A stretch of DNA of 64,000 nt from Minisyncoccota bacterium (lineage in GTDB: Bacteria; Patescibacteriota; Minisyncoccia; Phycocordibacterales; UBA9973), in NCBI GenBank assembly GCA_041650615.1, contig JBAZKU010000001.1, forward strand, positions 458,750 to 522,749. The letters are read 5' to 3'. Numbering within the stretch: the first letter of the stretch is position 1; each line of letters begins with the position of its first letter. The notes under the pieces were generated by a model. The model did not search any database and was not told the origin of the DNA. It worked only from the letters and a program-made list of their open reading frames with translations. The position numbers were made by a program, and so were the translations under genes. Below, piece after piece: positions 2,231-63,713 of this stretch.

Positions 2231-4672
2231 TTATTTAACCTCTCCAAAATTATTACCTGAACCGGAATGCACTATCAAAGGAATGTCAGTTTTATAATGC
2301 AAATATGACCGTTCAAGCACTGTCTGCATGGCATTTTTTATTATTTTTTCAGCTTCCGAAAGCTCTTTCCCCTCTACTTCATAAACTAATTCATCGTGTA
2401 TTTGGAGCACAAGATGAGTCTTATTCAACAGATCTGCTTTTTTTAAGTCTTCCTCCGCATATCTTATGGCTAACTTTATTATATCGGCGGTAGCTGTCCC
2501 CTGGACCGGCGCATTAGTAGCGGTACGTTCAGCCATATTTTTTAAAAATGGAATTCTAGAATTTATATTTGGGAAATATCTGCGTCTGCCAAATAATGTT
2601 TCCGTATAAAAATTTTTCATCGCAAATACTTTTACTTTCTCCAAATAATTTCGCACGCCGGAAAATTGGTTAAAATAATTATCATAGAATTTTTGCGCTT
2701 CGGGACGAGTTCCTCCCAAGCTTTTGCGCAAAGACGAGACTCCCATGCCATAGATAATGCCGAAGTTTATTACCTTGGCTTTGCGTCGCATTTCATTATC
2801 TACTTTTTCCATAGGTATGCCAAAAACAAACGAGGCTACCCCTGCGTGAATATCTTTGCCTTCACGAAATATCTGGGTCATTTTTTTATCTCCTGAAAGC
2901 ATCGCTATCACTCGAAGTTCAATTTGACTATAGTCAAAGGTCAAAAGTTTATATCCTTTTTCCGCGATAAAACCATTTCTTATTTTCTTGCCCAATTCTG
3001 TTTTTATCGGCAAATTTTGCAAATTTGGATCTTGGGAAGAAAATCTTCCCGTAGTTGTGCCATTTTGTAAAAATTTTGCATGTAAACGGCCATCTTCACT
3101 GACCATTTTAGGAATCACATCAATATAAGTAGAAAGCAGTTTTTGTAATTCTCTATAAGCCAAAATTTCTTTTATGATCGGATTATTTTCCTCCAATTCT
3201 TCCAGGACTGAAACTTTAGTGGAAAAAGATCCGTTTACTCCTTTTTTCTTGCCTGATTTCATTCCCATTTTGCCGAAAATTATTTCACCTAGCTGTTTGG
3301 GTGAGTTGATATTAAATTCTGTACCAGCTATTTTATATATTTTAGCCGTCAGTTTATCCAGCTCTTGGTGATATTCTTTTGACAAATTTTCAAAATATTT
3401 TTTATCTATCAAAATACCGTAATTCTGCATTTCTTTTACTGTATGTATTATCGGTTTTTCTATTTCTTCATACACTTTGTCTAGTTTTTTTTCTTTTAAT
3501 TGTTTAAAAATATATTCCTGAGCTCTTTCAAAATTATCAGTTCTGGAAAAATGTAAAATATCTTCCAAAGATGGGTTAGTTATATCTGAATTTAAGAGCC
3601 AAAGAGCGATAGAAGTTTCTTGAAGTTTTTCTTCGTCTACAAATGATGCCAGACGACCATGCTCGGAGGAGTATTCGCTGCGACCAGAAATATCTTGCCC
3701 TTCCAAGATAGTGTGCGAACGACGGAGAGCATGGTCGTCTGGCATTTCCCCCTGTTTATTCCCAAAGAAGTTTTTTAGCCGCGCAAATAAGCTTCTGAAT
3801 TCAAATTCGGAGAAAATATTTTCAATTTTTTTCAAATCCGCATTTTCCCAAAAAGTTTTTTTAGGCAATTCAAAATTTATCGGGGCATCTGTTCTTATTT
3901 TTGCCAAAGTTTTTGAAAACAGGGCTTCTTCTTCGTTATTTTTTATAAGTTCCAATATTCTAGGGGAAATGCCATTTTTTATAAATGCATTTTCATCTTT
4001 TTTTAATTTTTTATAAATTTCTTCTATGGTTCCGAAGTTTACAATTAAATTAGTTGCGGTTTTTTCACCAATACCTTTAATCCCAATAATATTATCAGAC
4101 GGATCTCCTCGCAATCCTTTATAATCCGGTAAAAGTTTCGGCTTAAAGCCAAATCTTTCAACCACTTTTTCTTCATCATATAAAATAGTGTCATTGATTC
4201 CTTTTTTTAATGTATATACTTGCACTTTTTTATCATCTATCAGTTGCATAGTATCCATATCGCCTGAAGCAATAATTATATTCATATTTTTGTCTTTCTT
4301 TAGTTCTTTTACTATGGTACCCAACACATCATCCGCTTCAAACCCCGGCGCATCATAAATAGGAATATTAAATGCTTCAAAAATTTGTCTGGAGTTTTTT
4401 AATTGTGCAATAAGACCTTCTTCTGCCTTCGCTCTCCCTGCTTTGTATCCTTCATAAACCTCATGTCTGAAAGTTTTTTGTGGCAAATCATAACAAGCTA
4501 CAATGTAGTCTGGTTTTAGGTCAGTAATTATTTTCATCAACATAGTAGAAAGCCCATATAAAGCCCCTGTCGGCTCGCCCTTGGATGATAAAAACTCCGG
4601 CAGGGCATGATAGGCGCGGTGTATTATCGCATGCGCATCCAGTAATACTAATGTCTTATTTTCCTTAGCCAT
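2231..4672 (-). CDS. polA: DNA polymerase I
   Basis: 5'-3' exonuclease N-terminus, DYSQIELRV and QIHDELV polymerase motifs; carries an in-frame palindromic insert at 3649-3742. Confidence 0.95.
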   Translation of the reverse strand: MAKENKTLVLLDAHAIIHRAYHALPEFLSSKGEPTGALYGLSTMLMKIITDLKPDYIVACYDLPQKTFRHEVYEGYKAGRAKAEEGLIAQLKNSRQIFEAFNIPIYDAPGFEADDVLGTIVKELKKDKNMNIIIASGDMDTMQLIDDKKVQVYTLKKGINDTILYDEEKVVERFGFKPKLLPDYKGLRGDPSDNIIGIKGIGEKTATNLIVNFGTIEEIYKKLKKDENAFIKNGISPRILELIKNNEEEALFSKTLAKIRTDAPINFELPKKTFWENADLKKIENIFSEFEFRSLFARLKNFFGNKQGEMPDDHALRRSHTILEGQDISGRSEYSSEHGRLASFVDEEKLQETSIALWLLNSDITNPSLEDILHFSRTDNFERAQEYIFKQLKEKKLDKVYEEIEKPIIHTVKEMQNYGILIDKKYFENLSKEYHQELDKLTAKIYKIAGTEFNINSPKQLGEIIFGKMGMKSGKKKGVNGSFSTKVSVLEELEENNPIIKEILAYRELQKLLSTYIDVIPKMVSEDGRLHAKFLQNGTTTGRFSSQDPNLQNLPIKTELGKKIRNGFIAEKGYKLLTFDYSQIELRVIAMLSGDKKMTQIFREGKDIHAGVASFVFGIPMEKVDNEMRRKAKVINFGIIYGMGVSSLRKSLGGTRPEAQKFYDNYFNQFSGVRNYLEKVKVFAMKNFYTETLFGRRRYFPNINSRIPFLKNMAERTATNAPVQGTATADIIKLAIRYAEEDLKKADLLNKTHLVLQIHDELVYEVEGKELSEAEKIIKNAMQTVLERSYLHYKTDIPLIVHSGSGNNFGEVK
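3649..3742. repeat. GC-rich palindromic element inserted in frame in polA (16-nt terminal inverted repeats CCAGACGACCATGCTC / GAGCATGGTCGTCTGG)
   Basis: Perfect 16-nt inverted repeat flanking ~62 nt of GC-rich sequence inside a ~33% GC gene; encodes ...DDHALRRSHTILEGQDISGRSEYSSEHGRLAS... with no stop. Confidence 0.7.
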
Positions 4673-7292: not shown

Positions 7293-7312
7293 AAAAACTA
7301 AAAATAAAAAAC

Positions 7313-7465
7313 ACTAATCTCTAAACAATCCTTTTAGGGCTAAGCCCCGAAAGTAACAAATCATTAGAGGATAGTTCCAGGAACTCGTGAAAGCACCAGA
7401 ACGTCCTATGCAAATTTATATAACCAAAGGCTGATTGCTTAGAGATTAGTGTCTTCTTTTTCAAA
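7313..7465 (+). ncRNA. Candidate structured RNA or MITE-like element (20-bp closing stem CACTAATCTCTAAACAATCC / GGCTGATTGCTTAGAGATTAGTG)
   Basis: Long-range inverted repeat enclosing ~110 nt with internal hairpins (GGGCTAAGCCC, GTTCCAGGAAC, GTGAAAGCAC), followed by a T-rich tract; no ORF. Confidence 0.35.
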
Positions 7466-7612
7466 AACAAAAGAGGTTATACCCCTTTGTAAAAACAATT
7501 ATACTATGGTTCCAAATCAAGCAATTGTTGTAAAAATGCTATAATGTGGATAGTATGTTGATAAGTGGCTTACTTATTAACACTTGGAGAAGTATAGCAT
7601 ATAATAAAACCA

Positions 7613-15399: not shown

Positions 15400-16743
15400 C
15401 TATTTAAACAGAATTCGTATTTGTTCTAGCTCCTGCAGTAATTGTGGGTCATTTTTTAGGTCCGCTTTTATTTTTAAATATGAATGTATTACTGTCGTAT
15501 GGTCTTTACCACCCAATTTTTGCCCAATTAAAGGATAAGACACATTAAAATCTTCCCTAAGTAAATACATTACCACTTGTCTTGCTTTTACTATTTCTTT
15601 TCTTCTGGTTTTTTCATAAACCAAAGACTCTTCCAGTGAATAATAATCACTCACTGTTTTTACTACGTCTTTTATAGCTATATTTTTCTTAGGCTTTATA
15701 TTATTTTTTAATAAATTTTTAACCTCAGGCACCGTAAGAGGTTTATTTTTTAAGCGATATTGGCAAACAATGGTATTTAAACTCCCCTCAAGCTCACGGA
15801 TATTACCTTGGATAGTTTCTGCGACATACTCTACCAAATCTTCTCCTAAATCAACATTGAGATCTCTTAATTTTACCTTTAAAATTGCAAGGCGAGATTC
15901 ATATTCCGGCTCGGAAACATCCACTATCATCCCAGCCGCAAAGCGCGATTTTAAACGATCTGCTAATTCTGGGATATAATTAGGGTGTTTATCTGAAGAG
16001 AATATAATTTGTTTATTGTTTTCATAAAAAGTGTTGAATGTATGAAAAAGTTCTTCTTGAATTTTTTCCATTTTGCCGATAAACTGAATGTCGTCTATAA
16101 TTAAAAGATCATATTTGCGATATTTTTCTTTAAAAGAATTTGCTTTATTGTTTTGTAGAGAATTTATAAAATCAGTGGCAAATTTTTCCAAAGTCAGATA
16201 ATACACCTTTTTATTCGGGTATTTATCTTTTATTGAGTTTCCTATTGCTTGAATCAGGTGTGTTTTACCAAGCCCAGTACCCCCATAAACAAAAAATGGA
16301 TTATATTTTGTTCCTGGGTTCTCTATTATTGCTTGAGAGGCGGCATAAGCAAGTTCATTAAAAGATCCCACAATAAAAGAATTAAAACGATAACGCGGGT
16401 TTAAATTATCTTCTGGATTTATATATAAATCTTTTAAAGGTAATTCCTTATTTATATAAACTTCATTTGTTTTAGGTAATTCCTGTTTCCCGGTTTCTAT
16501 TTTAGTGATAACATACTCCACCGCTCTCATGTTTTCGTATGCATCAGCTATGGTTTTAGTGATAAGTTTATGGTATTTATTTTTAAGCCAATCACGAACA
16601 AATTCGTTTGGCACTCCAACATAAACAATACCTACTTCCTCTTTTAGAATACAAGTGTTTTTAAACCAGGTGCTAAAGTTTGCCTTAGAAACCCCTGCCT
16701 CAATTTCCACCAAACAATTTTTCCAAAGTTGCTTTGTATCCAT
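15400..16743 (-). CDS. dnaA: Chromosomal replication initiator DnaA
   Basis: AAA+ Walker A GGTGLGKTHL, IDDIQF box, C-terminal DnaA-box binding domain. Confidence 0.95.
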   Translation of the reverse strand: MDTKQLWKNCLVEIEAGVSKANFSTWFKNTCILKEEVGIVYVGVPNEFVRDWLKNKYHKLITKTIADAYENMRAVEYVITKIETGKQELPKTNEVYINKELPLKDLYINPEDNLNPRYRFNSFIVGSFNELAYAASQAIIENPGTKYNPFFVYGGTGLGKTHLIQAIGNSIKDKYPNKKVYYLTLEKFATDFINSLQNNKANSFKEKYRKYDLLIIDDIQFIGKMEKIQEELFHTFNTFYENNKQIIFSSDKHPNYIPELADRLKSRFAAGMIVDVSEPEYESRLAILKVKLRDLNVDLGEDLVEYVAETIQGNIRELEGSLNTIVCQYRLKNKPLTVPEVKNLLKNNIKPKKNIAIKDVVKTVSDYYSLEESLVYEKTRRKEIVKARQVVMYLLREDFNVSYPLIGQKLGGKDHTTVIHSYLKIKADLKNDPQLLQELEQIRILFK

Positions 16744-34648: not shown

Positions 34649-35515
34649 CTATCCTTTTTTGTTAATATCTATGGCTTTGGCAAGATTTAACCAATCTTCC
34701 AACGTCAGTTCTTCTGCCCTTTTATTCCCAAGTATCCTGGCGGAAGCTATTCTTCCGTATTTTGAGAGAGTTTTTAAATTTGAAGAGAGTTTTTTTCTCT
34801 TATGCGCAAAACCAGCGTGAATTATTTCCCAAAATTTCTCTTCATTTATTTTATTTTTAATAAAATTTTTTCTGGAAATATTTTTAATAGCAATGACCAC
34901 TGAATTCACATTAGGAACGGGTGAAAAGTACCGTGCCGGTACCTTCATAATCGTTTCAGGATTTCCATATGCTTTTACCGAGATTGAAAGAATGCTTTCT
35001 TTTTTATCTCTAGCCATAATTCTTTTGGCGACTTCGTTTTGAACCATCAATATCATTCTTTCCGGCTGATTTTTCTCCGTCAGAAATTTTTTTAATATTG
35101 CGCCAGTGATATTGTAAGGTATGTTGGCAATAATTTTATATTCAAAATCTGGGTGTTTCTTTCGATTTTGAGCTTCCCGAGGGGCCCACTCGGTAATCCG
35201 AGAAGGGCGCAGGGACGAAAAATCGGAAGAAACATCCAGATTTAAGATATCGTCATTTATTAGGATCAATTTCTCATCTTTAATTTCCTTAGAAAATTTT
35301 TCTTGCAAAAATTTAAAAAGTTCATAGTCTTTCTCTATGGCAATTACACAGCCAGCTCTTTCTAAAAGTTTTTCTGTCAGTGCGCCTTTTCCAGGACCGA
35401 TTTCTAAAATAATATCTTCTTCAGAGATTTCCCCAGCTTCCACTATTTTTTTTAGCGCCAAAGCAGACTTTAAAAAATTTTGCCCTAATGATTTTTTTGC
35501 CTTGTATATTTTCAT
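34649..35515 (-). CDS. rsmA: 16S rRNA (adenine1518/1519-N6)-dimethyltransferase
   Basis: LGQNFL motif and SAM-binding EIGPGKGALT; carries an in-frame GC-rich repeat insert at 35170-35223. Confidence 0.9.
   Translation of the reverse strand: MKIYKAKKSLGQNFLKSALALKKIVEAGEISEEDIILEIGPGKGALTEKLLERAGCVIAIEKDYELFKFLQEKFSKEIKDEKLILINDDILNLDVSSDFSSLRPSRITEWAPREAQNRKKHPDFEYKIIANIPYNITGAILKKFLTEKNQPERMILMVQNEVAKRIMARDKKESILSISVKAYGNPETIMKVPARYFSPVPNVNSVVIAIKNISRKNFIKNKINEEKFWEIIHAGFAHKRKKLSSNLKTLSKYGRIASARILGNKRAEELTLEDWLNLAKAIDINKKG
35170..35223 (-). repeat. Family C GC-rich palindromic element inserted in frame in rsmA
   Basis: ~54 nt nearly identical (reverse complement) to the intergenic copy at 51432-51481; encodes SLRPSRITEWAPREAQNR. 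Confidence 0.75.
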
Positions 35516-37584
35516 ATATAAATTGTTTTTATTCCGCCCTTTTCCCTTTCTTTTTCTATAATATCACTGGGAATATCAGAAATGAATTCTGATGGAGTAT
35601 TTATTTGGCGCGAACCGAAAATAGTGCGGAAATTTACAAACGATAAAAATAATTTTTCTTTGGCGCGAGTAAGCGCGACATAAAAAAGTCTACGTTCTTC
35701 TTCCTTATCTTCGGCATTTTTTATTTCACCATCTCTTTGGTGCGGAAAAAGTCCGTCTTCTAATCCTGTGACAAAAACATATTTGAACTCAAGTCCTTTT
35801 GAAGCATGCACGGTCATTAATTTTACGGCATTTTTATTTTCTTTTTTTTCTTGATTAAACATCATTCCGTCTTGATCCGAAGCCAAAGAAGCATCTTCTA
35901 AAAGTTTTTCTATTCCTGTCCCATCCTTTAAATCATTATATTTTAAGGCTAAAGTAGCCAATTCCTTTATATTTTCCAACCTTTCCATGTCTTCTTCGGT
36001 GCCGGAAAGAAGTTCTTTCTCAATGTCGGATTTTTTTATCGTAAATCTTATAACATCAGACGCTTTTTCAGTTACTATTTTTTCTTTTATTTCTTCCAAT
36101 GTTTTATAGAAATTATCAACTTTTGTTTTTACTTTTATTGGTAATGTTTCTTTTTCGCCGGCGAAAATTTTAGCTAGAGTTACTTTTCCTATTCCCCTTG
36201 CAGGGAAGTTTATTATTCTTTTTATATCAGACAAACTTTCTCTGTTAAGTGCAGCCCGAAGATATGCGAGAGTGTCTTTTATTTCTTTTCTTTCAAAAAA
36301 TTTAACACCCAAAACTTGATATGGAATATTATATCGGAGCATTGCTTCTTCCAACGCGCGCGATTGAAAATTCGCGCGGTATAAAACTGCGACTTCGGAC
36401 ATAGATGCGGGTGTGCTTTGAGGGGGTGTCTCAGATGGCGAAAGGCGAGGTATTCTCGAGCGAACCCTTGGTAGGAGCGACGGCGACGGACAGAGAAAAT
36501 TTTCAGCAGAAAATTTTCGTGGTGAGTCCGAGAATACCTCACCTGAAGCCCTGTCCATAATCTCTAAAACTTTTGTCGCGACAAAATCCGCTTCGTCACT
36601 TTCATCCAATGCTTCGTAAAAACCGATTTTCTCACCGATTTTATTTTTGGTGAATAAATTTTTATCCGGCCTGTATTTATTTTTCTTTATTATTTCGTTG
36701 GCCGCCTCTAAGATGTTTTGAGTGGACCTGTAATTTTCTTCAAGCAAAATTATTTTCGCACTAGGGTAATCTTTCTCAAAACTCAAAATATTTTTTAAAT
36801 TGGCTCCGCGCCAAGAATAAATATTTTGATCGGCATCCCCTACCACGCAGATATTTCTATTTTTTTCAGAAAGCAAGCGCGACATTAAATATTGTACTTC
36901 ATTTGTATCTTGATATTCGTCAATGTGGATGTAATCCCATTTTTCTTGATAAATTTTTCTAATTTGTTCATTTTCTTTTAACAACTTGGTTGCTTTTAAA
37001 AGCAAATCGTCAAAATCCAAAGAATTTTCTTTGACTTTTTTCTTTTCATATAAATTCCAAACTTGCGCCACTATCCCCCCAAAAAAATCATGCGTTCTTT
37101 CTTTATAATCCGCCAGAGGAGTAAATTTCCCCTTTTCCCGGCTGATTATGTTGCCTATTTTCTTAGGATCGTATTGTTTCGGGTCCAACCCCAGCTCCTT
37201 TAATGATTCCTTTATAAGGGTTGTTGAATCTGATTCATCTAAAATAGTGAAATGTCTGGTTAATCCTAAAATTCTTGCATTTTCCTTTATTATATAAACT
37301 CCCAAGGAATGAAAAGTACTAATAAAAGGTATAGTATTTTGGCCTTTGGCATTTTCCTTAATTTCCGAGATAATTCGTTCACGCATTTCTTTAGCTGCTT
37401 TATTAGTAAAAGTGACAGCTAGAATTTTCTCCGGAGCGATCCCATTTTTGATTAAATTTAGTATTCTATGCGTTATTGTCTTTGTTTTCCCCGCGCCTGC
37501 TCCGGCAACAATAAGAAGCGGTCCGTCTATATGGATTGCTGCCTCTCTTTGTTTACTGTTGAGTCCCCTTAAATGTTCGTCCAT
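35512..37584 (-). CDS. uvrD: ATP-dependent DNA helicase UvrD/PcrA
   Basis: Walker A AGAGAGKTKTITHRI and SF1 helicase motifs; carries an in-frame ~95-nt repeat element. Confidence 0.9.
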   Translation of the reverse strand: MDEHLRGLNSKQREAAIHIDGPLLIVAGAGAGKTKTITHRILNLIKNGIAPEKILAVTFTNKAAKEMRERIISEIKENAKGQNTIPFISTFHSLGVYIIKENARILGLTRHFTILDESDSTTLIKESLKELGLDPKQYDPKKIGNIISREKGKFTPLADYKERTHDFFGGIVAQVWNLYEKKKVKENSLDFDDLLLKATKLLKENEQIRKIYQEKWDYIHIDEYQDTNEVQYLMSRLLSEKNRNICVVGDADQNIYSWRGANLKNILSFEKDYPSAKIILLEENYRSTQNILEAANEIIKKNKYRPDKNLFTKNKIGEKIGFYEALDESDEADFVATKVLEIMDRASGEVFSDSPRKFSAENFLCPSPSLLPRVRSRIPRLSPSETPPQSTPASMSEVAVLYRANFQSRALEEAMLRYNIPYQVLGVKFFERKEIKDTLAYLRAALNRESLSDIKRIINFPARGIGKVTLAKIFAGEKETLPIKVKTKVDNFYKTLEEIKEKIVTEKASDVIRFTIKKSDIEKELLSGTEEDMERLENIKELATLALKYNDLKDGTGIEKLLEDASLASDQDGMMFNQEKKENKNAVKLMTVHASKGLEFKYVFVTGLEDGLFPHQRDGEIKNAEDKEEERRLFYVALTRAKEKLFLSFVNFRTIFGSRQINTPSEFISDIPSDIIEKEREKGGIKTIYI
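36447..36540 (+). repeat. Family B MITE-like element inserted in frame (antisense) in uvrD
   Basis: 12-nt terminal inverted repeats GAGGTATTCTCG/CGAGAATACCTC; ~65-nt core near-identical to the intergenic copy at 43664-43766. Confidence 0.75.
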
Positions 37585-39670: not shown

Positions 39671-39911
39671 TCTCTGCTTGTTTCATGTAAAACATCTATA
39701 ATTATGTTTCACGTGAAACTTTTTACTTAATTTTTATGTCTTTTATTATAATATCCTTATTTTACAACGCATTTTTAACAAAAATACCTCTTAAAGACAA
39801 CATTTTTCTATGTCCTTTATAAACATTACCAACATAGTTATCCACAGTTTTTTACAAAACCCTTATAAAATGAAGATAAAATAAAGAAAGTATAAAGGAC
39901 AGGAAAATTTG

Positions 39912-39982
39912 TGCGGCTAGGGAGAATCGAACTCCCGTCTCATCCTTGGCAAGGACGTGTTCTACCACTAAACCATAACCGC
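39912..39982 (-). tRNA. tRNA-Gly (anticodon GCC)
   Basis: Reverse-strand cloverleaf; anticodon loop TTGCCAA; T-arm GGGAG-TTCGATT-CTCCC. Confidence 0.8.
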
Positions 39983-39990
39983 TTTTTATT

Positions 39991-40142
39991 ATGTAAAAAG
40001 ACCACCAAATATAACCACAATTTAAACAATGTAAAAAGACCACCAAATATAACCACAATTTAAACAATGTAATAAAGACCGTTAAATATAACCACAATTT
40101 AAACAATGTAAAAAGACCCTGAATATAATCGCAATTTTAAAT
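39991..40142. repeat. Tandem direct repeat, 4 copies of a ~38-bp unit (ATGTAAAAAGACCACCAAATATAACCACAATTTAAACA)
   Basis: Copies 1 and 2 identical, copies 3 and 4 degenerate; no spacers, so not CRISPR; sits between two tRNA genes. Confidence 0.85.
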
Positions 40143-43663: not shown

Positions 43664-43766
43664 TCGTGAAACTAAGATTTTTTCACCACGAAAATTTTCT
43701 GCTGAAAATTTTCTCTGTCCGTCGCCGTCGCTCCTCCCAAGGGTTCAAAAATCTTAGTTTCACGAC
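43664..43766 (-). repeat. Family B MITE-like element, intergenic copy, with 20-nt terminal inverted repeats GTCGTGAAACTAAGATTTTT / AAAAATCTTAGTTTCACGAC
   Basis: Perfect TIRs flank a GC-rich core (GAACCCTTGGGAGGAGCGACGGCGACGGACAGAGAAAATTTTCAGCAGAAAATTTTCGTGGTGA) shared with the uvrD insert. Confidence 0.8.
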
Positions 43767-44682: not shown

Positions 44683-44720
44683 AATCTAATTTTACCATGT
44701 CGCACAATATTTTAGAAGGA

Positions 44721-44812
44721 AAATCGTTGCCTATGAAGAATTTAAGAAACGTGTGGGTTCCCTGTCCTTTTGACTCCGAGGGCGCAATTTCGAAATTCTT
44801 CATAGGCAACGA
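44721..44812 (+). repeat. Family F structured element in the rpsO 5' region (21-bp closing stem ATCGTTGCCTATGAAGAATTT / AAATTCTTCATAGGCAACGAT around a GC core GTGGGTTCCCTGTCCTTTTGACTCCGAGGGCG)
   Basis: Perfect long inverted repeat; core is near-identical to the copy at 63621-63713. Confidence 0.7.
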
Positions 44813-44855
44813 TAAAACCTTGCAATTTCAACGACTTTATGCTAATGTGAAGTAC

Positions 44856-45119
44856 ATGTTAACCACAAAGAAAAAGCAAACAATTATAAAGAAAAATCAA
44901 ATTCATGAGAAAGATACTGGCTCTTCTGAGGTTCAGGTAGCTGTTTTATCCACTCAAATAGAAGAATTGGCAAAACATTTAAAAAAACACAAAAAAGACA
45001 ACAGTTCTCGCAGGGGGCTTATTAAAATGGTAGCTGATAGGCGTACTCATTTGAAGTATTTAGAACGCAAAAACAAGCCTCGTTATAATGCACTCATGAA
45101 AAAGATGAATCTCGTCTAG
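44856..45119 (+). CDS. rpsO: 30S ribosomal protein S15
   Basis: 87 aa, GSSEVQVAVLSTQIEELAKHLKKHKKDNSSRRGL matches the S15 family; the upstream part of the 44697 ORF is a spurious extension. Confidence 0.9.
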   Translation: MLTTKKKQTIIKKNQIHEKDTGSSEVQVAVLSTQIEELAKHLKKHKKDNSSRRGLIKMVADRRTHLKYLERKNKPRYNALMKKMNLV

Positions 45120-47880: not shown

Positions 47881-47918
47881 TGTTATTTAAAAACTCTTTC
47901 TCGGTATATCTTTTTCTA

Positions 47919-47985
47919 GGGTACGGATTTTTTGAAGCTTAAAAAATCCTGAAGTTCTCGGCTCGTCAGCCTCGAAACCCCCTAA
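47919..47985 (+). repeat. Family A REP-like element (copy 1), 39 nt downstream of the pnp stop
   Basis: GGTACGGATTTTTTGAAGCTTAAAAAATCCTGAAGTTCTCGGCTCGTCAGCCTCGAAACCCC; contains a 9-bp hairpin GGATTTTTT/AAAAAATCC. Confidence 0.8.
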
Positions 47986-48021
47986 AAAAGATACACCTTC
48001 AACGAGTTTTTAAAATCAATT

Positions 48022-49321: not shown

Positions 49322-49366
49322 TTAAAAAATAATATAAAATTAATGACAAAAGTAAAAAATTTTGTC

Positions 49367-49434
49367 GGTACGGATTTTTTGAAGCTTAAAAAATCCTGAA
49401 ATTGGCTCGCCGTCGCTCGCCAAACCCCTTAAAA
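49367..49434 (+). repeat. Family A REP-like element (copy 2), 46 nt downstream of the stop
   Basis: Near-identical to copies 1, 3 and 4 (GGTACGGATTTTTTGAAGCTTAAAAAATCCTGAAATTGGCTCGCCGTCGCTCGCCAAACCCC). Confidence 0.8.
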
Positions 49435-49466
49435 TCTTTTCTTTTGCCATTAATTTTTTAATAATC

Positions 49467-51008
49467 ATGAGTTTTGCAAAAGTTTATTCAGCACAAGTAA
49501 ACCTCCTTTCCGGTCAAATCGTAACCATAGAGGTTGATTTATCGCGTGGGTTGCACACTTTTAACGTGGTAGGACTTCCGGATAATGCCGTAAATGAATC
49601 AAAAGACAGAGTAAGTTCGGCTATAAAAAATTCCGGTTTTAAATCTCCCAAAGCCAAGAACCAAAAAATAATCGTCTCCCTTTCACCGGCCGACTTGAAA
49701 AAAGAAGGGCCGTTTTTTGATCTGGCTATTGCCCTCGCCTATATGCTGGCGTCGGAGGATTTAAAATTTGATTCTGAGAAGAAGATTTTTCTTGGGGAAC
49801 TGGGTTTAGACGGAACGCTGCGACGTATCAGGGGAGCGTTGCCCCTCGTTCAAGAAGCCAAGCGAGCCGGATATGAAGAAATCTTTTTGCCGAAAGAAAA
49901 TGCGGTTGAGGCGGCATTAGTGGAAGGGGTAAAAATTTTTGGCGCAAGCAGTTTAAAGGAAGTGGTGGAACATATTAATGAAGAAAAAAACAAGGAAAAT
50001 AAAAAAATAAAAATTCAACCGAAAACAGAAGTAAATTTTAAAAAAGAAAGAAAAAATTCCGACTTTTCTGATATTAGAGGACAAGAAGGCGCGAAAAGAG
50101 GATTGGAAATAGCGGCTGCCGGCGGACACAATATTGCTATGTACGGTCCTCCTGGTACGGGGAAAACAATGTTGGCGAGAGCCTTCTCTCAATTATTGCC
50201 GGACTTAGGGTTGGAAGAAGTTTTAGAGATCACCGGAATACACTCTGTTGCTGGAGTAACGCGAGGGGAATTAATTTCCACTCCGCCGTTTCGCTCTCCG
50301 CATCACACTTCTTCTTATGTCTCAATTATTGGCGGAGGAACTTATCCGAAGCCTGGGGAAGTGACCTTGGCACACAGAGGCGTTTTATTTTTAGATGAAT
50401 TCCCGGAATTTGAAAAAAGAGTAATTGAATCTCTACGACAACCATTGGAAGATAATGTTGTTTCAATTTCTAGAGCCAAAGGAACAGCTTCTTTCCCATC
50501 AAATTTTATTTTAGTGGCGGCAATGAATCCTTGCCCATGCGGGAATACCGGTTCAAAACAAAAAGTTTGTATTTGTAGGCCGTCTGATTTGGATAGATAT
50601 AAAAGAAAATTGTCGGGGCCGATAATGGATCGTATTGATTTGTGGGTTTCTGTCGGTAATGTTGATTATAAAAAGTTGGGGGAGGAGGGAAATGGGGAGA
50701 AAAGCGAAAAAATAAAATACAGAGTGACAAAAGCGCGGGAAATTCAAAAGAAAAGATTTGAAAAATTTGGTAGAAAAATACAAACAAATAGCGAAATGAA
50801 TGTGAAAGATTTATCCGGAATGATAAAACTGAAAGAAGAAGTAAGAAATCTACTGGATGATAGCGCCGAACGTTTGGCCCTCTCCGCTCGTGCTTATCAT
50901 CGGGTTATCAAAATCGCCCGCACTATTGCTGACCTGGAAAATTCAGAGGAAATTAACTCAAATCATATCTTAGAGGCTATACAATACAGACCGAAAGTGA
51001 ATAGTTAA
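49467..51008 (+). CDS. comM: Mg-chelatase-like AAA+ ATPase YifB/ComM
   Basis: N-terminal Lon-like domain, AAA+ Walker A GPPGTGKTMLA, C-terminal Mg_chelatase_C. Confidence 0.9.
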   Translation: MSFAKVYSAQVNLLSGQIVTIEVDLSRGLHTFNVVGLPDNAVNESKDRVSSAIKNSGFKSPKAKNQKIIVSLSPADLKKEGPFFDLAIALAYMLASEDLKFDSEKKIFLGELGLDGTLRRIRGALPLVQEAKRAGYEEIFLPKENAVEAALVEGVKIFGASSLKEVVEHINEEKNKENKKIKIQPKTEVNFKKERKNSDFSDIRGQEGAKRGLEIAAAGGHNIAMYGPPGTGKTMLARAFSQLLPDLGLEEVLEITGIHSVAGVTRGELISTPPFRSPHHTSSYVSIIGGGTYPKPGEVTLAHRGVLFLDEFPEFEKRVIESLRQPLEDNVVSISRAKGTASFPSNFILVAAMNPCPCGNTGSKQKVCICRPSDLDRYKRKLSGPIMDRIDLWVSVGNVDYKKLGEEGNGEKSEKIKYRVTKAREIQKKRFEKFGRKIQTNSEMNVKDLSGMIKLKEEVRNLLDDSAERLALSARAYHRVIKIARTIADLENSEEINSNHILEAIQYRPKVNS

Positions 51009-51032
51009 AAAGCAAAGAACAATATTTTTGCC

Positions 51033-51100
51033 GGTACGGATTTTTTGAAGCTTAAAAAATCCTGAAATTGGCTCGCCGTCGCTCGCCAAACCCCTTAAAA
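51033..51100 (+). repeat. Family A REP-like element (copy 3), 25 nt downstream of the comM stop
   Basis: Same sequence as copy 2. Confidence 0.8.
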
Positions 51101-51140
51101 ACATTGTTTTTTGCTTTTTAGGTTATCCACAGGTGGGTTG

Positions 51141-51169
51141 TTGACAGTGAACGCTCGTTCACTTATACT
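51141..51169 (+). promoter_or_regulatory. Consensus sigma70 promoter (TTGACA-17-TATACT) whose spacer is a Cheo-type LexA box GAACGCTCGTTC; TTATCCACA just upstream
   Basis: Palindrome GTGAACGCTCGTTCAC (GAAC-N4-GTTC) lies exactly between the -35 and -10; a LexA homolog is encoded 350 nt downstream. Confidence 0.6.
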
Positions 51170-51209
51170 TTAGGTAGGTCATTTATAAACAATTTAACCT
51201 ATATAAAAT

Positions 51210-51407
51210 ATGTCACAAAAACAATATATTAAAACTGTTGAAAGAGAAATCCAAAGAATCAATAGAATAATTGATTTGAAAATTCTTCGCGGGGAAGAAT
51301 ATTTTAGGGAAGCTAGAGACCATAAGCTTCTCTTGAAAAAAATACGCTTTTATAACAGGCAGAATTTTTTCAGAAAATTATTTCCAACTTTTTCTGTCCT
51401 TTTTTAA
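51210..51407 (+). CDS. Hypothetical small basic protein (65 aa) in the lexA operon
   Basis: ORF directly downstream of the SOS-box promoter; no recognisable family. Confidence 0.3.
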   Translation: MSQKQYIKTVEREIQRINRIIDLKILRGEEYFREARDHKLLLKKIRFYNRQNFFRKLFPTFSVLF

Positions 51408-51431
51408 ATTTCGCTCCGTTTCTTCAAATTT

Positions 51432-51481
51432 TTCGTCCCTGCGCCCTTCTCGGAGTACCGAGTGGGACCCTCGGGAAGCTC
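51432..51481 (+). repeat. Family C GC-rich palindromic element, intergenic copy
   Basis: TTCGTCCCTGCGCCCTTCTCGGAGTACCGAGTGGGACCCTCGGGAAGCTC; matches the rsmA in-gene copy. Confidence 0.75.
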
Positions 51482-51511
51482 AAAATTTAAAGAAACTTCG
51501 CTCAGATAAAA

Positions 51512-52078
51512 ATGAAAAACATTTATCAGACAAAACTGGAAAATTTCTACGGGAAAAATAAAAGAATGCCCACCTATTCTGAAATGCTGGAGCTTTTCAA
51601 TTTCAAATCCAAGAATGCTGTTTTTAAGATTGTAAATAAGCTGATTGAAGCGGGAATTGTTGCTAAGGACCATCTAGGAAGGTTGATGCCGACCGAGATT
51701 TTTAGTGAAATACCAAAACTCGGTTTTGTTACCGCTGGATTCCCAGCTACGGTAGAAGAAGAATTGACCGATACAGTAAATTTGGATGATTTTCTAATAA
51801 AAAATAAACCATTAACTTATATGTTAGAAGTGGATGGGGATTCTATGATTGATGCGCACATAGAAAAAGGGGATATGGTTCTCGTAGAAAAAACAAATCA
51901 AGCCAAAGACGGGCAAATTGTTATCGCGGAAGTGGATGGAGATTTTACAATGAAATATTTTAAAAAAAATGGTTCCAGGGTTTGGCTAGAACCAGCCAAT
52001 AAAAATTATAAACCAATTTATCCAACTCAAAGCTTGAATGTGATTGCGATATTAAAAGCTGTAGTTAGAAAATATTAA
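51512..52078 (+). CDS. lexA: LexA-like repressor (S24 peptidase)
   Basis: N-terminal winged-helix HTH, C-terminal S24 domain with GDSM Ser and MKYF Lys. Confidence 0.8.
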   Translation: MKNIYQTKLENFYGKNKRMPTYSEMLELFNFKSKNAVFKIVNKLIEAGIVAKDHLGRLMPTEIFSEIPKLGFVTAGFPATVEEELTDTVNLDDFLIKNKPLTYMLEVDGDSMIDAHIEKGDMVLVEKTNQAKDGQIVIAEVDGDFTMKYFKKNGSRVWLEPANKNYKPIYPTQSLNVIAILKAVVRKY

Positions 52079-52080
52079 AC

Positions 52081-52112
52081 AGAACAAAATAAAAAGCCCC
52101 TAAGGGGCTTTT
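52081..52112. terminator. Bidirectional intrinsic terminator between lexA and hup (AAAAAGCCCC-TAA-GGGGCTTTTT)
   Basis: Perfect 10-bp stem with an A-run and a T-run. Confidence 0.8.
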
Positions 52113-52136
52113 TATTTTTTATCTCGAGATAAAAGA

Positions 52137-52409
52137 TTAAGCAACTGCGTCTTTTAGGGCCTTGGCAGCTCTGAATTTTGGAACTTTCTTAGCAGCTACT
52201 TTGACTTGCTCTCCGGTCTTTGGATTGCGAGCTGTTCTAGCAGCGCGTGCCTTTACGGAAAAGATTCCGAAGCCGGCGATTGATACTTCGCCACCTTTCT
52301 TCATGGTGCCGATGATAGCGTCAAACAAACTGTCAACAATTTCTTCAGCTTGTACTTTTGTACCACCAAGCTTTCCATGTACTAACTCAGCTAATGCTTG
52401 TTTATTCAT
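52137..52409 (-). CDS. hup: DNA-binding protein HU
   Basis: 90 aa, GFGIFSVKARAARTARNPKTGE beta-arm motif. Confidence 0.9.
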   Translation of the reverse strand: MNKQALAELVHGKLGGTKVQAEEIVDSLFDAIIGTMKKGGEVSIAGFGIFSVKARAARTARNPKTGEQVKVAAKKVPKFRAAKALKDAVA

Positions 52410-52603
52410 ATTTTTAAAGGTTATTTTTATAATGCTTTCGACCGTTTGCTTATATAAATACTATCCATACATTATATATCAAGGGTTTTTTAAGGCAAGC
52501 TCCCACACTTTCTTCTCTGAAGCGCTAAAAAGCGTATTGTTATCAATATCAGGGAAGATAGTGTGGGGGCAAGTGTGTCTAAAATAGAAAAAGAATAATT
52601 TTT

Positions 52604-52669
52604 AAAGGGGTTTGGCGAGCGACGGCGAGCCAATTTCAGGAAATTTTAAGCTTAAAAATTTCCGTACCG
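52604..52669 (-). repeat. Family A REP-like element (copy 4, reverse orientation), 28 nt downstream of the rny stop on the minus strand
   Basis: Reverse complement matches copies 1-3, so it is sense to the upstream minus-strand gene. Confidence 0.8.
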
Positions 52670-52696
52670 ACTAAAAATTGATTCTTTTTCTATTTT

Positions 52697-54226
52697 TTAC
52701 CTCGCATATTCAATAATTCTGGTCTCTCTTATCATTGTAACCTTGATTTCGCCAGGGTATTTCAATTCTTGTTCTATTTTTACGGCAATATCATGAGCCA
52801 TTATCTTAGCTTCAGCGTCGGATACTTTTTCCGGAGTAACAAAGATGCGAATTTCACGGCCAGCCTGAAGCGCATACGATTTTTCCACTCCCGGAAAAGC
52901 ATTTACCAATCCTTCAAGTTCCTGTAATCTCTTCAAGTAATTTTCCACTGAATCACGGCGAGCTCCGGGTCTGCCACCGGAGATAGCGTCAGCTGTTTGG
53001 ACGATTACCGCTTCTATTGTTTCATACGGATAATCTTCATGGTGGGATTTCATTGCGGTGATAATGCGTTCGTCCGCTCCGAATTTCTGTAAAATTCTTA
53101 TCCCTATTTCAATATGTGTGCCTTGTACTTCGTGGTCCAACGCTTTACCGATATCATGTACCAGTGCCCCGGCTTTAGCTATCGCCACATCTGCGCCTAA
53201 TTCCTCGGCAATCATTCCAGCGATGTGCGCCATTTCAATGGAATGCTGAAGCACATTTTGTCCGTAACTGGTGCGGAAATATAATCGTCCAATAATAGCA
53301 ACAATACGTGGGTCAAAATTAAATATTCCGCATTCATATACCGCTTGTTCTCCTTTTTCTTTAATGATTTTATTTATTTCTTCTTTTGCTTTTTCTACTA
53401 GCTCTTCAATCTTGGCTGGTTGAATGCGCCCGTCTAAAATCAAGTTTTCAAGCGCAAGACGGGCAACCTGGCGTCTAATTGGGTCAAAGGAAGAAATAAT
53501 TATTGATCCTGGAGTATCATCCACAATAAGTTCAACCCCGGAAGCTCGTTCAAAAGCCCTTATATTTCGGCCTTCTTTTCCAATAACTTTGCCCTTAATT
53601 TCATTGTTTGGAATATTCACTATGGTTGTCATTAATTCAGAGGCGGTGCTTGAAGCAAGACGCTGGATAGAAGTGGCTAAAATGTCTTTTGCCCTGTTAT
53701 CTAGCTTTTCTTCATTGCTATTTTCAAGTTTTTGAATTCTGATCAAAAGATCTTCCTCGTATTTCTTTTCAATGTCTCTCATTAGCTCTCCTTTTGCTTC
53801 TTCTTCCGTTAGTTTTGATACCCTTTCTAATTCAATTATCTTTTCCGCTTCTATTCCCGAGACCTTTTCCTGAATTTTTTTTACTTCTTCTACCTTAAGT
53901 TTAATATTTTCAGTTTCTTTATTTATTTCCACTTGCCGAGCATCCAAAAACTCATCTTTTTTTATAAGTCTTTTTTCTGTTTCTTTATATTCCTCTTCTT
54001 TCTTTTTCTCTTCCTCTTTTAGCTCAGCAAGCCTTTTCTCTACTTTATTTTTAGCTTCATCTATAAGTTTCTGCGCTTCTTCTTTAGCGCCAACCAACAT
54101 CTGCTTTATATCTATTTCTATGGATTTTCTCTTTCCCAGCGCAACAACCATTCGCAAATAGTATCCGATTCCCGCGCCCAAAAGGAGCACTCCGACTCCG
54201 ATTAGAATTATTGTTAATAAGCTCAT
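52697..54226 (-). CDS. rny: Ribonuclease Y
   Basis: N-terminal TM, coiled coil, KH domain, HD domain HDIGK. Confidence 0.9.
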   Translation of the reverse strand: MSLLTIILIGVGVLLLGAGIGYYLRMVVALGKRKSIEIDIKQMLVGAKEEAQKLIDEAKNKVEKRLAELKEEEKKKEEEYKETEKRLIKKDEFLDARQVEINKETENIKLKVEEVKKIQEKVSGIEAEKIIELERVSKLTEEEAKGELMRDIEKKYEEDLLIRIQKLENSNEEKLDNRAKDILATSIQRLASSTASELMTTIVNIPNNEIKGKVIGKEGRNIRAFERASGVELIVDDTPGSIIISSFDPIRRQVARLALENLILDGRIQPAKIEELVEKAKEEINKIIKEKGEQAVYECGIFNFDPRIVAIIGRLYFRTSYGQNVLQHSIEMAHIAGMIAEELGADVAIAKAGALVHDIGKALDHEVQGTHIEIGIRILQKFGADERIITAMKSHHEDYPYETIEAVIVQTADAISGGRPGARRDSVENYLKRLQELEGLVNAFPGVEKSYALQAGREIRIFVTPEKVSDAEAKIMAHDIAVKIEQELKYPGEIKVTMIRETRIIEYAR

Positions 54227-63620: not shown

Positions 63621-63713
63621 ATTATGAAAATTAAAAAATTTAAGGCGTCGTGGGTTCCCTGTCCTGTTGACTCCGAGGGCGAAGGCGCAAAAATTTTTTG
63701 AATTTTTATAATT
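63621..63713 (+). repeat. Family F structured element upstream of nusA (antisense to it), with imperfect ~21-bp flanking stem
   Basis: Core GTGGGTTCCCTGTCCTGTTGACTCCGAGGGCG near-identical to the rpsO-leader copy; flanked by ATTATGAAAATTAAAAAATTT / AAAATTTTTTGAATTTTTATAAT. Confidence 0.7.

Follow-up and report, generated by a model that had tools for sequence, protein, structure and literature searches.

Among the division inhibitors encoded beside lexA, the genes yneA, sosA, divS, and chiZ are divergent from it, and sulA of Pseudomonas lies downstream of it in a lexA-sulA operon. In Acinetobacter, the small protein DdrR acts with the LexA-type UmuDAb, and in Bacillus subtilis the sda gene, which has several DnaA boxes and is not LexA-repressed, encodes a small helical-hairpin checkpoint protein. 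Here we describe a locus in 64 kb of Patescibacteria DNA (this whole stretch is called the window) in which lexA is preceded by an open reading frame (ORF) of 65 residues, and the promoter ahead of the pair holds both a predicted LexA operator and a perfect DnaA box. A further described system that bears on this arrangement is gp7 of phage GIL01, which strengthens the DNA binding of LexA and blocks its RecA-mediated cleavage (PMC4551915).

The LexA side of the locus is the familiar one: LexA self-repression through a GAAC-N4-GTTC palindrome is known biology, and the locus shares with Gram-positive LexA (DinR) the GAAC-N4-GTTC core, an operator lying on the core promoter of lexA itself, the Ser-Lys dyad, and the Ala-Gly site. 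In comparison with DinR, however, the palindrome is longer, very uniform (GTGAACG-N2-CGTTCAC), and exactly within the -35/-10 spacer, and lexA comes second in an operon of two genes. On our own reading, the recognition helix (SKNAVFK) also looks closer to that of E. coli LexA (SPNAAEE) than to that of Bacillus LexA. With the lexA-linked inhibitors the locus has in common a small gene beside lexA under a LexA operator, with co-transcription as in Pseudomonas; unlike SulA and the LysM/transmembrane inhibitors, the small protein has no sequence or domain similarity to them and no transmembrane segment, and its gene is upstream of lexA, coupled to it, and far more conserved. As in sda, a DnaA box lies upstream of the promoter for a helical hairpin of about 50-65 residues that would be tied to replication or DNA-damage status, but the 65-residue protein has no Pfam Sda match, the box is a single one, and we know of no sporulation in Patescibacteria. 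The likeness to gp7 and DdrR is that of a small protein working with a LexA-type repressor, and these two could serve as the model for a LexA partner.

What appears to be a new variant of the LexA system is the lexA-linked orphan family together with the invariant DnaA box. Our literature search returned no description of a DnaA box in a lexA promoter or of a small ORF co-transcribed upstream of lexA; Sanchez-Osuna et al. 2017 (Environ Microbiol 19:3465), a work cited in PMC8565304 and PMC7739468 that reportedly deals with LexA in Patescibacteria and probably with LexA motifs and regulons, lay outside that search. The best overall explanation of the locus, to which we assign a probability of about 0.7, is an autoregulated lexA operon that also encodes a small protein, possibly a LexA partner, and has probable DnaA input.

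The organism is a Paceibacteria or Nomurabacteria-like member of Patescibacteria. Extensions of 10 kb on each side (≈18 kb added), along a contig of 147 kb, brought the sequence examined from this genome to ≈82 kb. A scan of one genome per species yielded 184 stretches encoding a relative, all of them from Patescibacteria and labelled Nomurabacteria or Paceibacterota, although some records are evidently mislabelled. The best 80 of the 184 (374 kb) were analysed, and the comparison covers 83 orthologous loci, the window counted.

A predicted LexA operator within the promoter spacer

The original prediction placed a DnaA box and, inside a consensus promoter, an SOS (Cheo) box upstream of a small ORF, a repeat, and lexA, and every element of this array was found on reading positions 50700-52700 (Table 1). 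The promoter matches the consensus at 11 of 12 positions and is the best within 50900-52700, the region covered by promoter prediction; transcription is predicted to start near 51173-51177. The proposed 16-nucleotide (nt) palindrome is present. Its arms, 7 nt long around a center of two unpaired bases, reach 8 nt when the flanking A and T are included. A palindrome with the GAAC-N4-GTTC core of an SOS (Cheo-type) box does overlap the lexA promoter. The DnaA box, said to lie 10 nt upstream of the -35 hexamer, is actually 9 nt from it.

Table 1. Features of the small ORF-lexA locus, in window positions.
Feature	Position	Strand	Basis or remark
Palindromic repeat copy, ~90-106 nt	51014..51119	+	Repeat families D1, I1, I2; between the comM stop (51008) and the DnaA box
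Perfect DnaA box TTATCCACA	51123..51131	+	Sequence reading
-35 hexamer TTGACA	51141..51146	+	Promoter prediction and 80 relatives
Spacer GTGAACGCTCGTTCACT, 17 nt	51147..51163		Sequence reading
Predicted LexA operator GTGAACG-CT-CGTTCAC, an SOS (Cheo-type) box with a GAAC-N4-GTTC core	51147..51162	strandless	Fills the promoter spacer
-10 hexamer TATACT	51164..51169	+	Promoter prediction and 80 relatives
65-residue ORF, first operon gene	51210..51407	+	Homologs, codon statistics, structure model
79-nt GC-rich palindromic repeat between the two genes	51418..51496	+	Inverted copy, relatives
lexA, 188 residues, N-terminal winged helix and C-terminal S24 autoprotease	51512..52078	+	Pfam, TIGR00498, structure alignment
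Bidirectional intrinsic terminator	52086..52118	strandless	15-bp stem between A and T runs
HU gene, convergent with lexA	52137-52409	-	Pfam

Taken alone, the GAAC-N4-GTTC core is not significant in 64 kb (one seen against 0.51 expected, and at least one in 34 of 100 shuffles). By our own calculation from base composition, the full palindrome with its 14 specified bases is expected ≈7e-5 times per window; no sequence in the window besides the one at 51148 comes within two mismatches of TGAACGNNCGTTCA, and relaxed operator matching in the window gives counts at or below chance. The comparison of loci is what decides the matter: the order of DnaA box, -35 hexamer, palindrome, and -10 hexamer is kept in 81 of the 83 loci, and GAAC-N4-GTTC stands at the equivalent position in the same fraction (81/83); the two others cannot be judged, one contig stopping inside the promoter and one leader being longer than the 160 nt examined. 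The locus consensus reads (A)GTTATCCACAG-N8-10-TTGACA(G)GT-GAACG[CA][TG]CGTTC-AC[TC]TATACT, with TTGACA in 78/80 and TATACT in 74/80 relatives, and a spacer of 17 nt in 53 loci and 18 nt in 27. The central dinucleotide varies between CT and AG across loci, so the operator is found in both orientations, as is expected of a symmetric dimer site. In four relatives (L012, L019, L021, and L035; ≈2474-2503), the ATG of the small ORF lies 6 nt past the -10 hexamer, and their mRNA should thus be leaderless; leaders in other relatives are 39-112 nt long, often with inserted repeats.

The palindrome is also concentrated at this place in the genome. Patescibacteria loci totalling 553 kb contain 114 GAAC-N4-GTTC sites, of which 109 lie at this promoter and the remaining five are at chance level. 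A metagenome scan for the 16-mer GTGAACGNNCGTTCAC found at least 120 stretches carrying it; among the 120 matches listed, 32 encode the small protein or a LexA of this type, and in these the 16-mer immediately precedes the gene pair; two further matches are cut at contig ends. Seven of the 32 have lexA without the small ORF, and the palindrome thus tracks lexA and not its small neighbor. The other matches are unrelated high-GC sequences, including TetR-type operators in L108, L113, and L164, and no second recurring Patescibacteria target appears among the matches listed. In these genomes, the full palindrome is all but confined to the lexA operon.

One lineage offers what looks like a natural switch of specificity. 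In L203 (operator 2430-2480) and L204, the operator is GTGTACG-AG-CGTACAC, that is, GAAC has become GTAC in both arms within the same promoter frame, and in the L203 LexA (2703-3269) helix 3 reads SINSV in place of SKNAV alongside the symmetric GTAC operator. A paired change of this type is what might be expected between a repressor and its operator. Since the palindrome occupies the promoter spacer in essentially every relative, and also ahead of lexA genes that have no small ORF, the claim that it is the LexA operator has held up; we predict with high confidence that 51147-51162 is the LexA operator and that LexA sitting there would keep RNA polymerase off the promoter.

The repressor itself, called a LexA homolog in the original prediction, is by sequence a canonical, intact LexA. 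It scores 117 bits against the TIGR00498 equivalog cutoff of 110.95 (residues 13-187 on model positions 19-201) and matches Pfam Peptidase_S24 at E = 3.7e-29; with Pfam PF01726 alone, E is not below 0.01 for the window LexA. On alignment, Ala75-Gly76 (VTAGFP), Ser111 (GDSM), and Lys148 (TMKYF) fall on Ala84-Gly85, Ser119, and Lys156 of the E. coli protein, and residues 18-50 on E. coli LexA 24-56, with SKNAVFKIVNKL against SPNAAEEHLKAL in helix 3. The DNA-binding helix, the AG cleavage site, and the S24 Ser/Lys pair are all present.

Organization of the operon

The small ORF and lexA follow each other on the same strand in all 83 loci, with a gap of -8 to +124 nt that is mostly 0-6 nt; an 8-nt overlap is also common among the relatives. 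The stop codon of the first gene overlaps or directly adjoins the start codon of the second (ATGCGTAA, TAAATG), which points to translational coupling. No promoter is predicted between the two genes, and a terminator, common to lexA (+) and the HU gene (-), appears only past lexA at 52086..52118. The proposed two-gene operon is thus borne out as a conserved and often translationally coupled pair, and we regard a LexA-autoregulated bicistronic operon as very likely.

Linkage of the two genes reaches beyond this arrangement. Distant members of the small-protein family likewise adjoin lexA, and the gene order is reversed, with lexA first, in L131 (2920-3755), L205 (2421-3189), L206 (1-328), and the P0258 contig; in L205 the DnaA box and operator lie upstream of lexA, the first gene there. 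Adjacency in both gene orders indicates that the linkage survives rearrangement and is more than the sharing of a promoter.

In the window itself, the gap is 104 nt, owing to a clade-specific palindromic repeat insertion common to L004 and L007. The 79-nt repeat there has an inverted copy of 92% identity at 35155-35233 and folds at -29.2 kcal/mol (z = -2.15). A role as terminator or internal promoter was rejected, as the repeat has no U-tract after its stem and no promoter match and occurs only in the closest relatives; it is a clade-specific addition outside the ancestral operon. Unrelated insertions occupy the small ORF-lexA junction in other relatives.

Upstream, the edge of the regulatory region is marked by the repeat copy 51014..51119; in the relative L001, the comM stop codon leads directly to the DnaA box with no repeat in between. 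Where gene maps were examined, in the window and two close relatives, the order is comM, small ORF, lexA, HU gene, and RNase Y gene.

This chromosomal synteny bears on the idea that the two genes make up a mobile or accessory module, either a toxin-antitoxin system or a phage S24 repressor cassette, and not a chromosomal SOS regulator. A small pair with overlapping frames and an autoregulated promoter has the appearance of such a module, repeats lie on both flanks (51014-51119 and 52582-52687), and in L205 a PemK/PhdYeFM toxin-antitoxin pair adjoins the two genes. Yet the synteny runs from comM to the RNase Y gene in all three gene maps, the repressor scores above the LexA equivalog cutoff, no relative turned up in a scan of viral contigs, and there was no meaningful PHROG match. 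The flanking repeats, moreover, are dispersed intergenic elements that occur elsewhere in the window and not the ends of a mobile element. We consider a mobile origin very improbable.

A DnaA box upstream of the -35 hexamer

The DnaA box upstream of the operator spans ≈-53 to -45 relative to the predicted transcription start (center ≈-49). Perfect copies of TTATCCACA number four in the window against 0.46 expected, a count reached in 1 of 100 shuffles. The perfect box is kept in 72 of the 80 genome loci, and 72 of the 73 perfect boxes in their 374 kb sit at the lexA-operon promoter, with one elsewhere. The neighboring comM, HU, and RNase Y promoters have no DnaA box, so that promoters here do not carry one in general. 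Reversal of the gene order in L205 has left the box in place, and repeats have been inserted upstream of it, in the leader, and between the genes, with none between the box and the -10 hexamer in the loci examined. The DnaA box that the original prediction pointed out is, in short, as conserved as the operator and specific to this promoter.

The DnaA protein encoded in the window (15400-16743, -) is full length, carries the GGKDHTTVIHS signature of domain IV, and matches B. subtilis DnaA 8btg at E = 1.4e-109. DnaA at ≈-49 would be the simplest reading of the box, and we judge that the site at 51123-51131 is probably bound by DnaA. Alternatively, the TTATCCACAG element could be the target of another factor, such as the small protein or a complex of the small protein with LexA, or it could be an upstream promoter element. 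The element does tend to accompany the small ORF, and five higher-GC loci in which lexA stands alone (L096, L114, L172, L178, and L188) have neither; L160, a short contig with lexA alone, is the exception and has a DnaA box with one mismatch. The flanking bases, (A)G...G, are conserved too, and the boxes ahead of dnaA and dnaN in the window are TTATCAACA, not the perfect consensus. On the other hand, the 9-mer agrees at every base with the universal DnaA-box consensus, DnaA of this organism retains its base-contacting signature, and phylogeny is a confounder of the association with the small ORF. The box is, furthermore, a single asymmetric 9-mer that tolerates inversion (L120) and a variable distance: in L132 and L144 it is set farther back from the promoter, and in L169, L085, and L140 it directly adjoins the operator. 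Such tolerance is easier to reconcile with a monomeric DnaA domain IV than with a symmetric dimer or an AT-rich UP element. Recognition by something other than DnaA thus strikes us as rather unlikely.

Elsewhere in the window, a perfect DnaA box, agTTATCCACAg, is found at 39838 beside three direct repeats of 38-39 nt (39997-40118), each with TATAACCACA, between tRNA genes, and the cumulative GC skew has its minimum near 38-40 kb. The region 39838-40118 could be a replication origin, ≈23 kb from dnaA.

The small protein family

The small ORF is evidently a real gene. Its product, of 8.2 kDa with a pI of 10.5, has 267 close homologs of 64-88 residues, and differences by codon position among 79 orthologs are 0.23, 0.18, and 0.52; the third positions being the most variable, purifying selection acts on a protein. 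A profile search of 1.84 billion representatives returned 311 clusters at 50% identity, all of stand-alone proteins (34-133 residues) and none fused to LexA or to any other domain. Across 64 aligned representatives drawn from these clusters, N18, I21, D22, and H38 are invariant. The family is seen exclusively beside lexA, in either gene order.

AlphaFold2 predicts a helical hairpin with a pLDDT score of 87 and helices at residues 3-27 and 32-57, and the soluble model has no transmembrane segment. The homology and structure prediction proposed for the 65-residue protein thus gave a confident fold and no known family. There was no match in Pfam, NCBIfam, or PDB sequences and none of meaning in PHROGs; Pfam HisKA gave merely weak matches (E = 0.002-0.01) and was set aside, sequence-profile searches of the PDB brought up unrelated proteins only (E > 0.1), and Foldseek against the PDB found generic hairpins, nothing at E ≤ 0.001 and the best at ≈1. 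The protein shows no SulA similarity and no LysM or transmembrane architecture in Pfam, NCBIfam, or the model, and no sequence or fold match to gp7, whose structure is unconfirmed as a member of the structure libraries searched. Membership in the SulA, YneA, gp7, or Sda families failed every sequence and fold test run.

Our preferred reading, held tentatively, is that the protein is a dedicated LexA partner, which might act as a co-repressor or modulate cleavage, because of the adjacency in both gene orders, the coupling, the LexA-like conservation, and the finding of no member away from lexA. Gene linkage of this kind is at most suggestive of contact between the small protein and LexA.

The C-terminal tail (51356-51404, residues ≈50-65, NFFRKLFPTFSVLF, FFRKLFPTF) is amphipathic, with a hydrophobic moment of 0.66, and its pattern F-F/L-x-R/K-L/F-F is retained in 44 of 64 family members even though the tail is variable. 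It weakly resembles a MinD-type membrane-targeting motif, which we would treat as a lead only.

The extent of the regulon

No second LexA site was found in the ≈82 kb of the window genome. The genes covered there without a site include polA, ruvA, ruvB, ruvC, a uvrD-like gene, xth, fpg, udg, dnaA, and dnaN; ruvA, fpg, and udg, together with pilus genes, came in with the 10-kb extensions, which likewise hold no operator. The ≈82 kb offer no instance of the motif at another DNA-damage gene, the check proposed with the original prediction, and recA, uvrA, uvrB, and the translesion polymerase genes were not identified there.

A set of targets this small would favor another reading of the small protein, as the main SOS effector of a minimal regulon, that is, a damage-induced inhibitor of division or of replication initiation. 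Its gene would sit where it does since the lexA-operon promoter would be the one strongly LexA-controlled promoter of the genome. This operon has the sole LexA site in the available sequence, the 16-nt palindrome precedes no other recurring Patescibacteria gene among the matches listed, and a repressor with no target but itself calls for a payload. SOS division inhibitors are usually neighbors of lexA, the amphipathic tail has its MinD-type likeness, and a DnaA box would suit a link to the replication cycle. The known lexA-linked inhibitors are, however, fast-evolving and mostly membrane proteins, and this family is strongly conserved and has no transmembrane segment. Its upstream, coupled position would mean that, even without induction, at least as much of it is made as of the repressor, an awkward situation for a toxic inhibitor, and the amphipathicity of the tails barely exceeds that of shuffled tails (0.566 against 0.511). 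We regard an effector as possible and only a little less likely than a LexA partner.

Repeats and other features of the window

Members of the ≈90-106-nt repeat family lie in successive intergenic gaps, at 47908-47998, 49355-49445, and 51021-51111 (+) and at 52582-52687 (-), and flank the segment that holds the small ORF, lexA, and the HU gene as inverted copies. In L052, a member of this family (2702-2825) lies between the small ORF and lexA, and in some relatives different elements with terminal inverted repeats are found at this junction and in the leader.

Two families of GC-rich palindromic repeats also occur inside genes. One copy (35155-35233) lies within a ksgA/rsmA-like ORF (34649-35515, -), to which it appears to add ≈27 residues, and another (36462-36525) within a uvrD/pcrA-like ORF (35512-37584, -), where it appears to add ≈22, the frame being unbroken in both. 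Their partner copies are at 51418-51496 and 43683-43746, and their flanks form inverted repeats (AAATCTGG...CCAGATTT and GTATTCTCG...CGAGAATAC). These in-ORF elements resemble the Rickettsia palindromic elements.

A gene-free stretch of 320 nt (7293-7612) has a consensus minus-strand promoter (first hexamer 7619), tandem DnaA-like boxes (7545-7564, -), and an inverted repeat pairing 7302-7330 with 7433-7461. Rfam gave no match for 7293-7612, which may be an unannotated small transcript. Finally, a 32-nt sequence, GTGGGTTCCCTGTCC(T/G)TTTGACTCCGAGGGCG, occurs at 44753-44784 and 63650-63681 with 97% identity, the copies ≈19 kb apart, one inside a 140-residue ORF (44697-45119) and the other just upstream of a nusA-like gene.

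Proposed mechanism and its meaning

In the mechanism that we propose for the autoregulated lexA operon, a LexA dimer on the spacer operator would exclude RNA polymerase from a near-consensus sigma-70 promoter, and RecA-stimulated self-cleavage of LexA upon DNA damage would de-repress the operon. A single transcript would then give the basic 65-residue helical-hairpin protein followed by LexA, the two being translationally coupled in most relatives. The single high-affinity DnaA box at ≈-49 would most likely let DnaA, and hence replication status, modulate the operon; our guess is that this effect is modulatory or negative and not activating, because the core promoter is already near consensus.

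Several observations weigh against this explanation. The 104-nt insertion breaks the coupling of the small ORF and lexA in the window genome itself. The five lexA-alone loci lack the box together with the small ORF, and the link between box and operon may be one of shared ancestry, or another factor may bind. No LexA target besides the lexA operon was seen in the ≈82 kb or among the listed Patescibacteria matches from metagenomes, and a regulon this tiny would favor the small protein as an effector.

A stronger form of the proposal would make the SOS switch a two-protein device, with the hairpin protein as an obligate co-translated partner of LexA, DnaA gating the promoter directly, and the operon as possibly the sole strong LexA target. 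We think this unlikely as a whole. If it were true, the partner would be a chromosomal counterpart of gp7 and DdrR that tunes operator binding or RecA-dependent cleavage, and a single promoter would integrate replication status with DNA damage.

What is less ordinary about the locus is the combination of a conserved lexA-linked orphan family (311 clusters), an invariant DnaA box in the lexA promoter, and no further LexA target in the sequence examined. Patescibacteria make up a very large, mostly uncultured share of bacterial diversity, and to our knowledge almost nothing about their cell-cycle control has been established experimentally. The locus gives an orphan protein family a genomic context and hence a candidate role, in a compact module, a promoter of ≈50 bp and two small proteins, that is open to reconstitution in vitro or in a surrogate host. 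For the ultra-small Patescibacteria, these features suggest a pared-down and differently wired checkpoint for DNA damage and replication.

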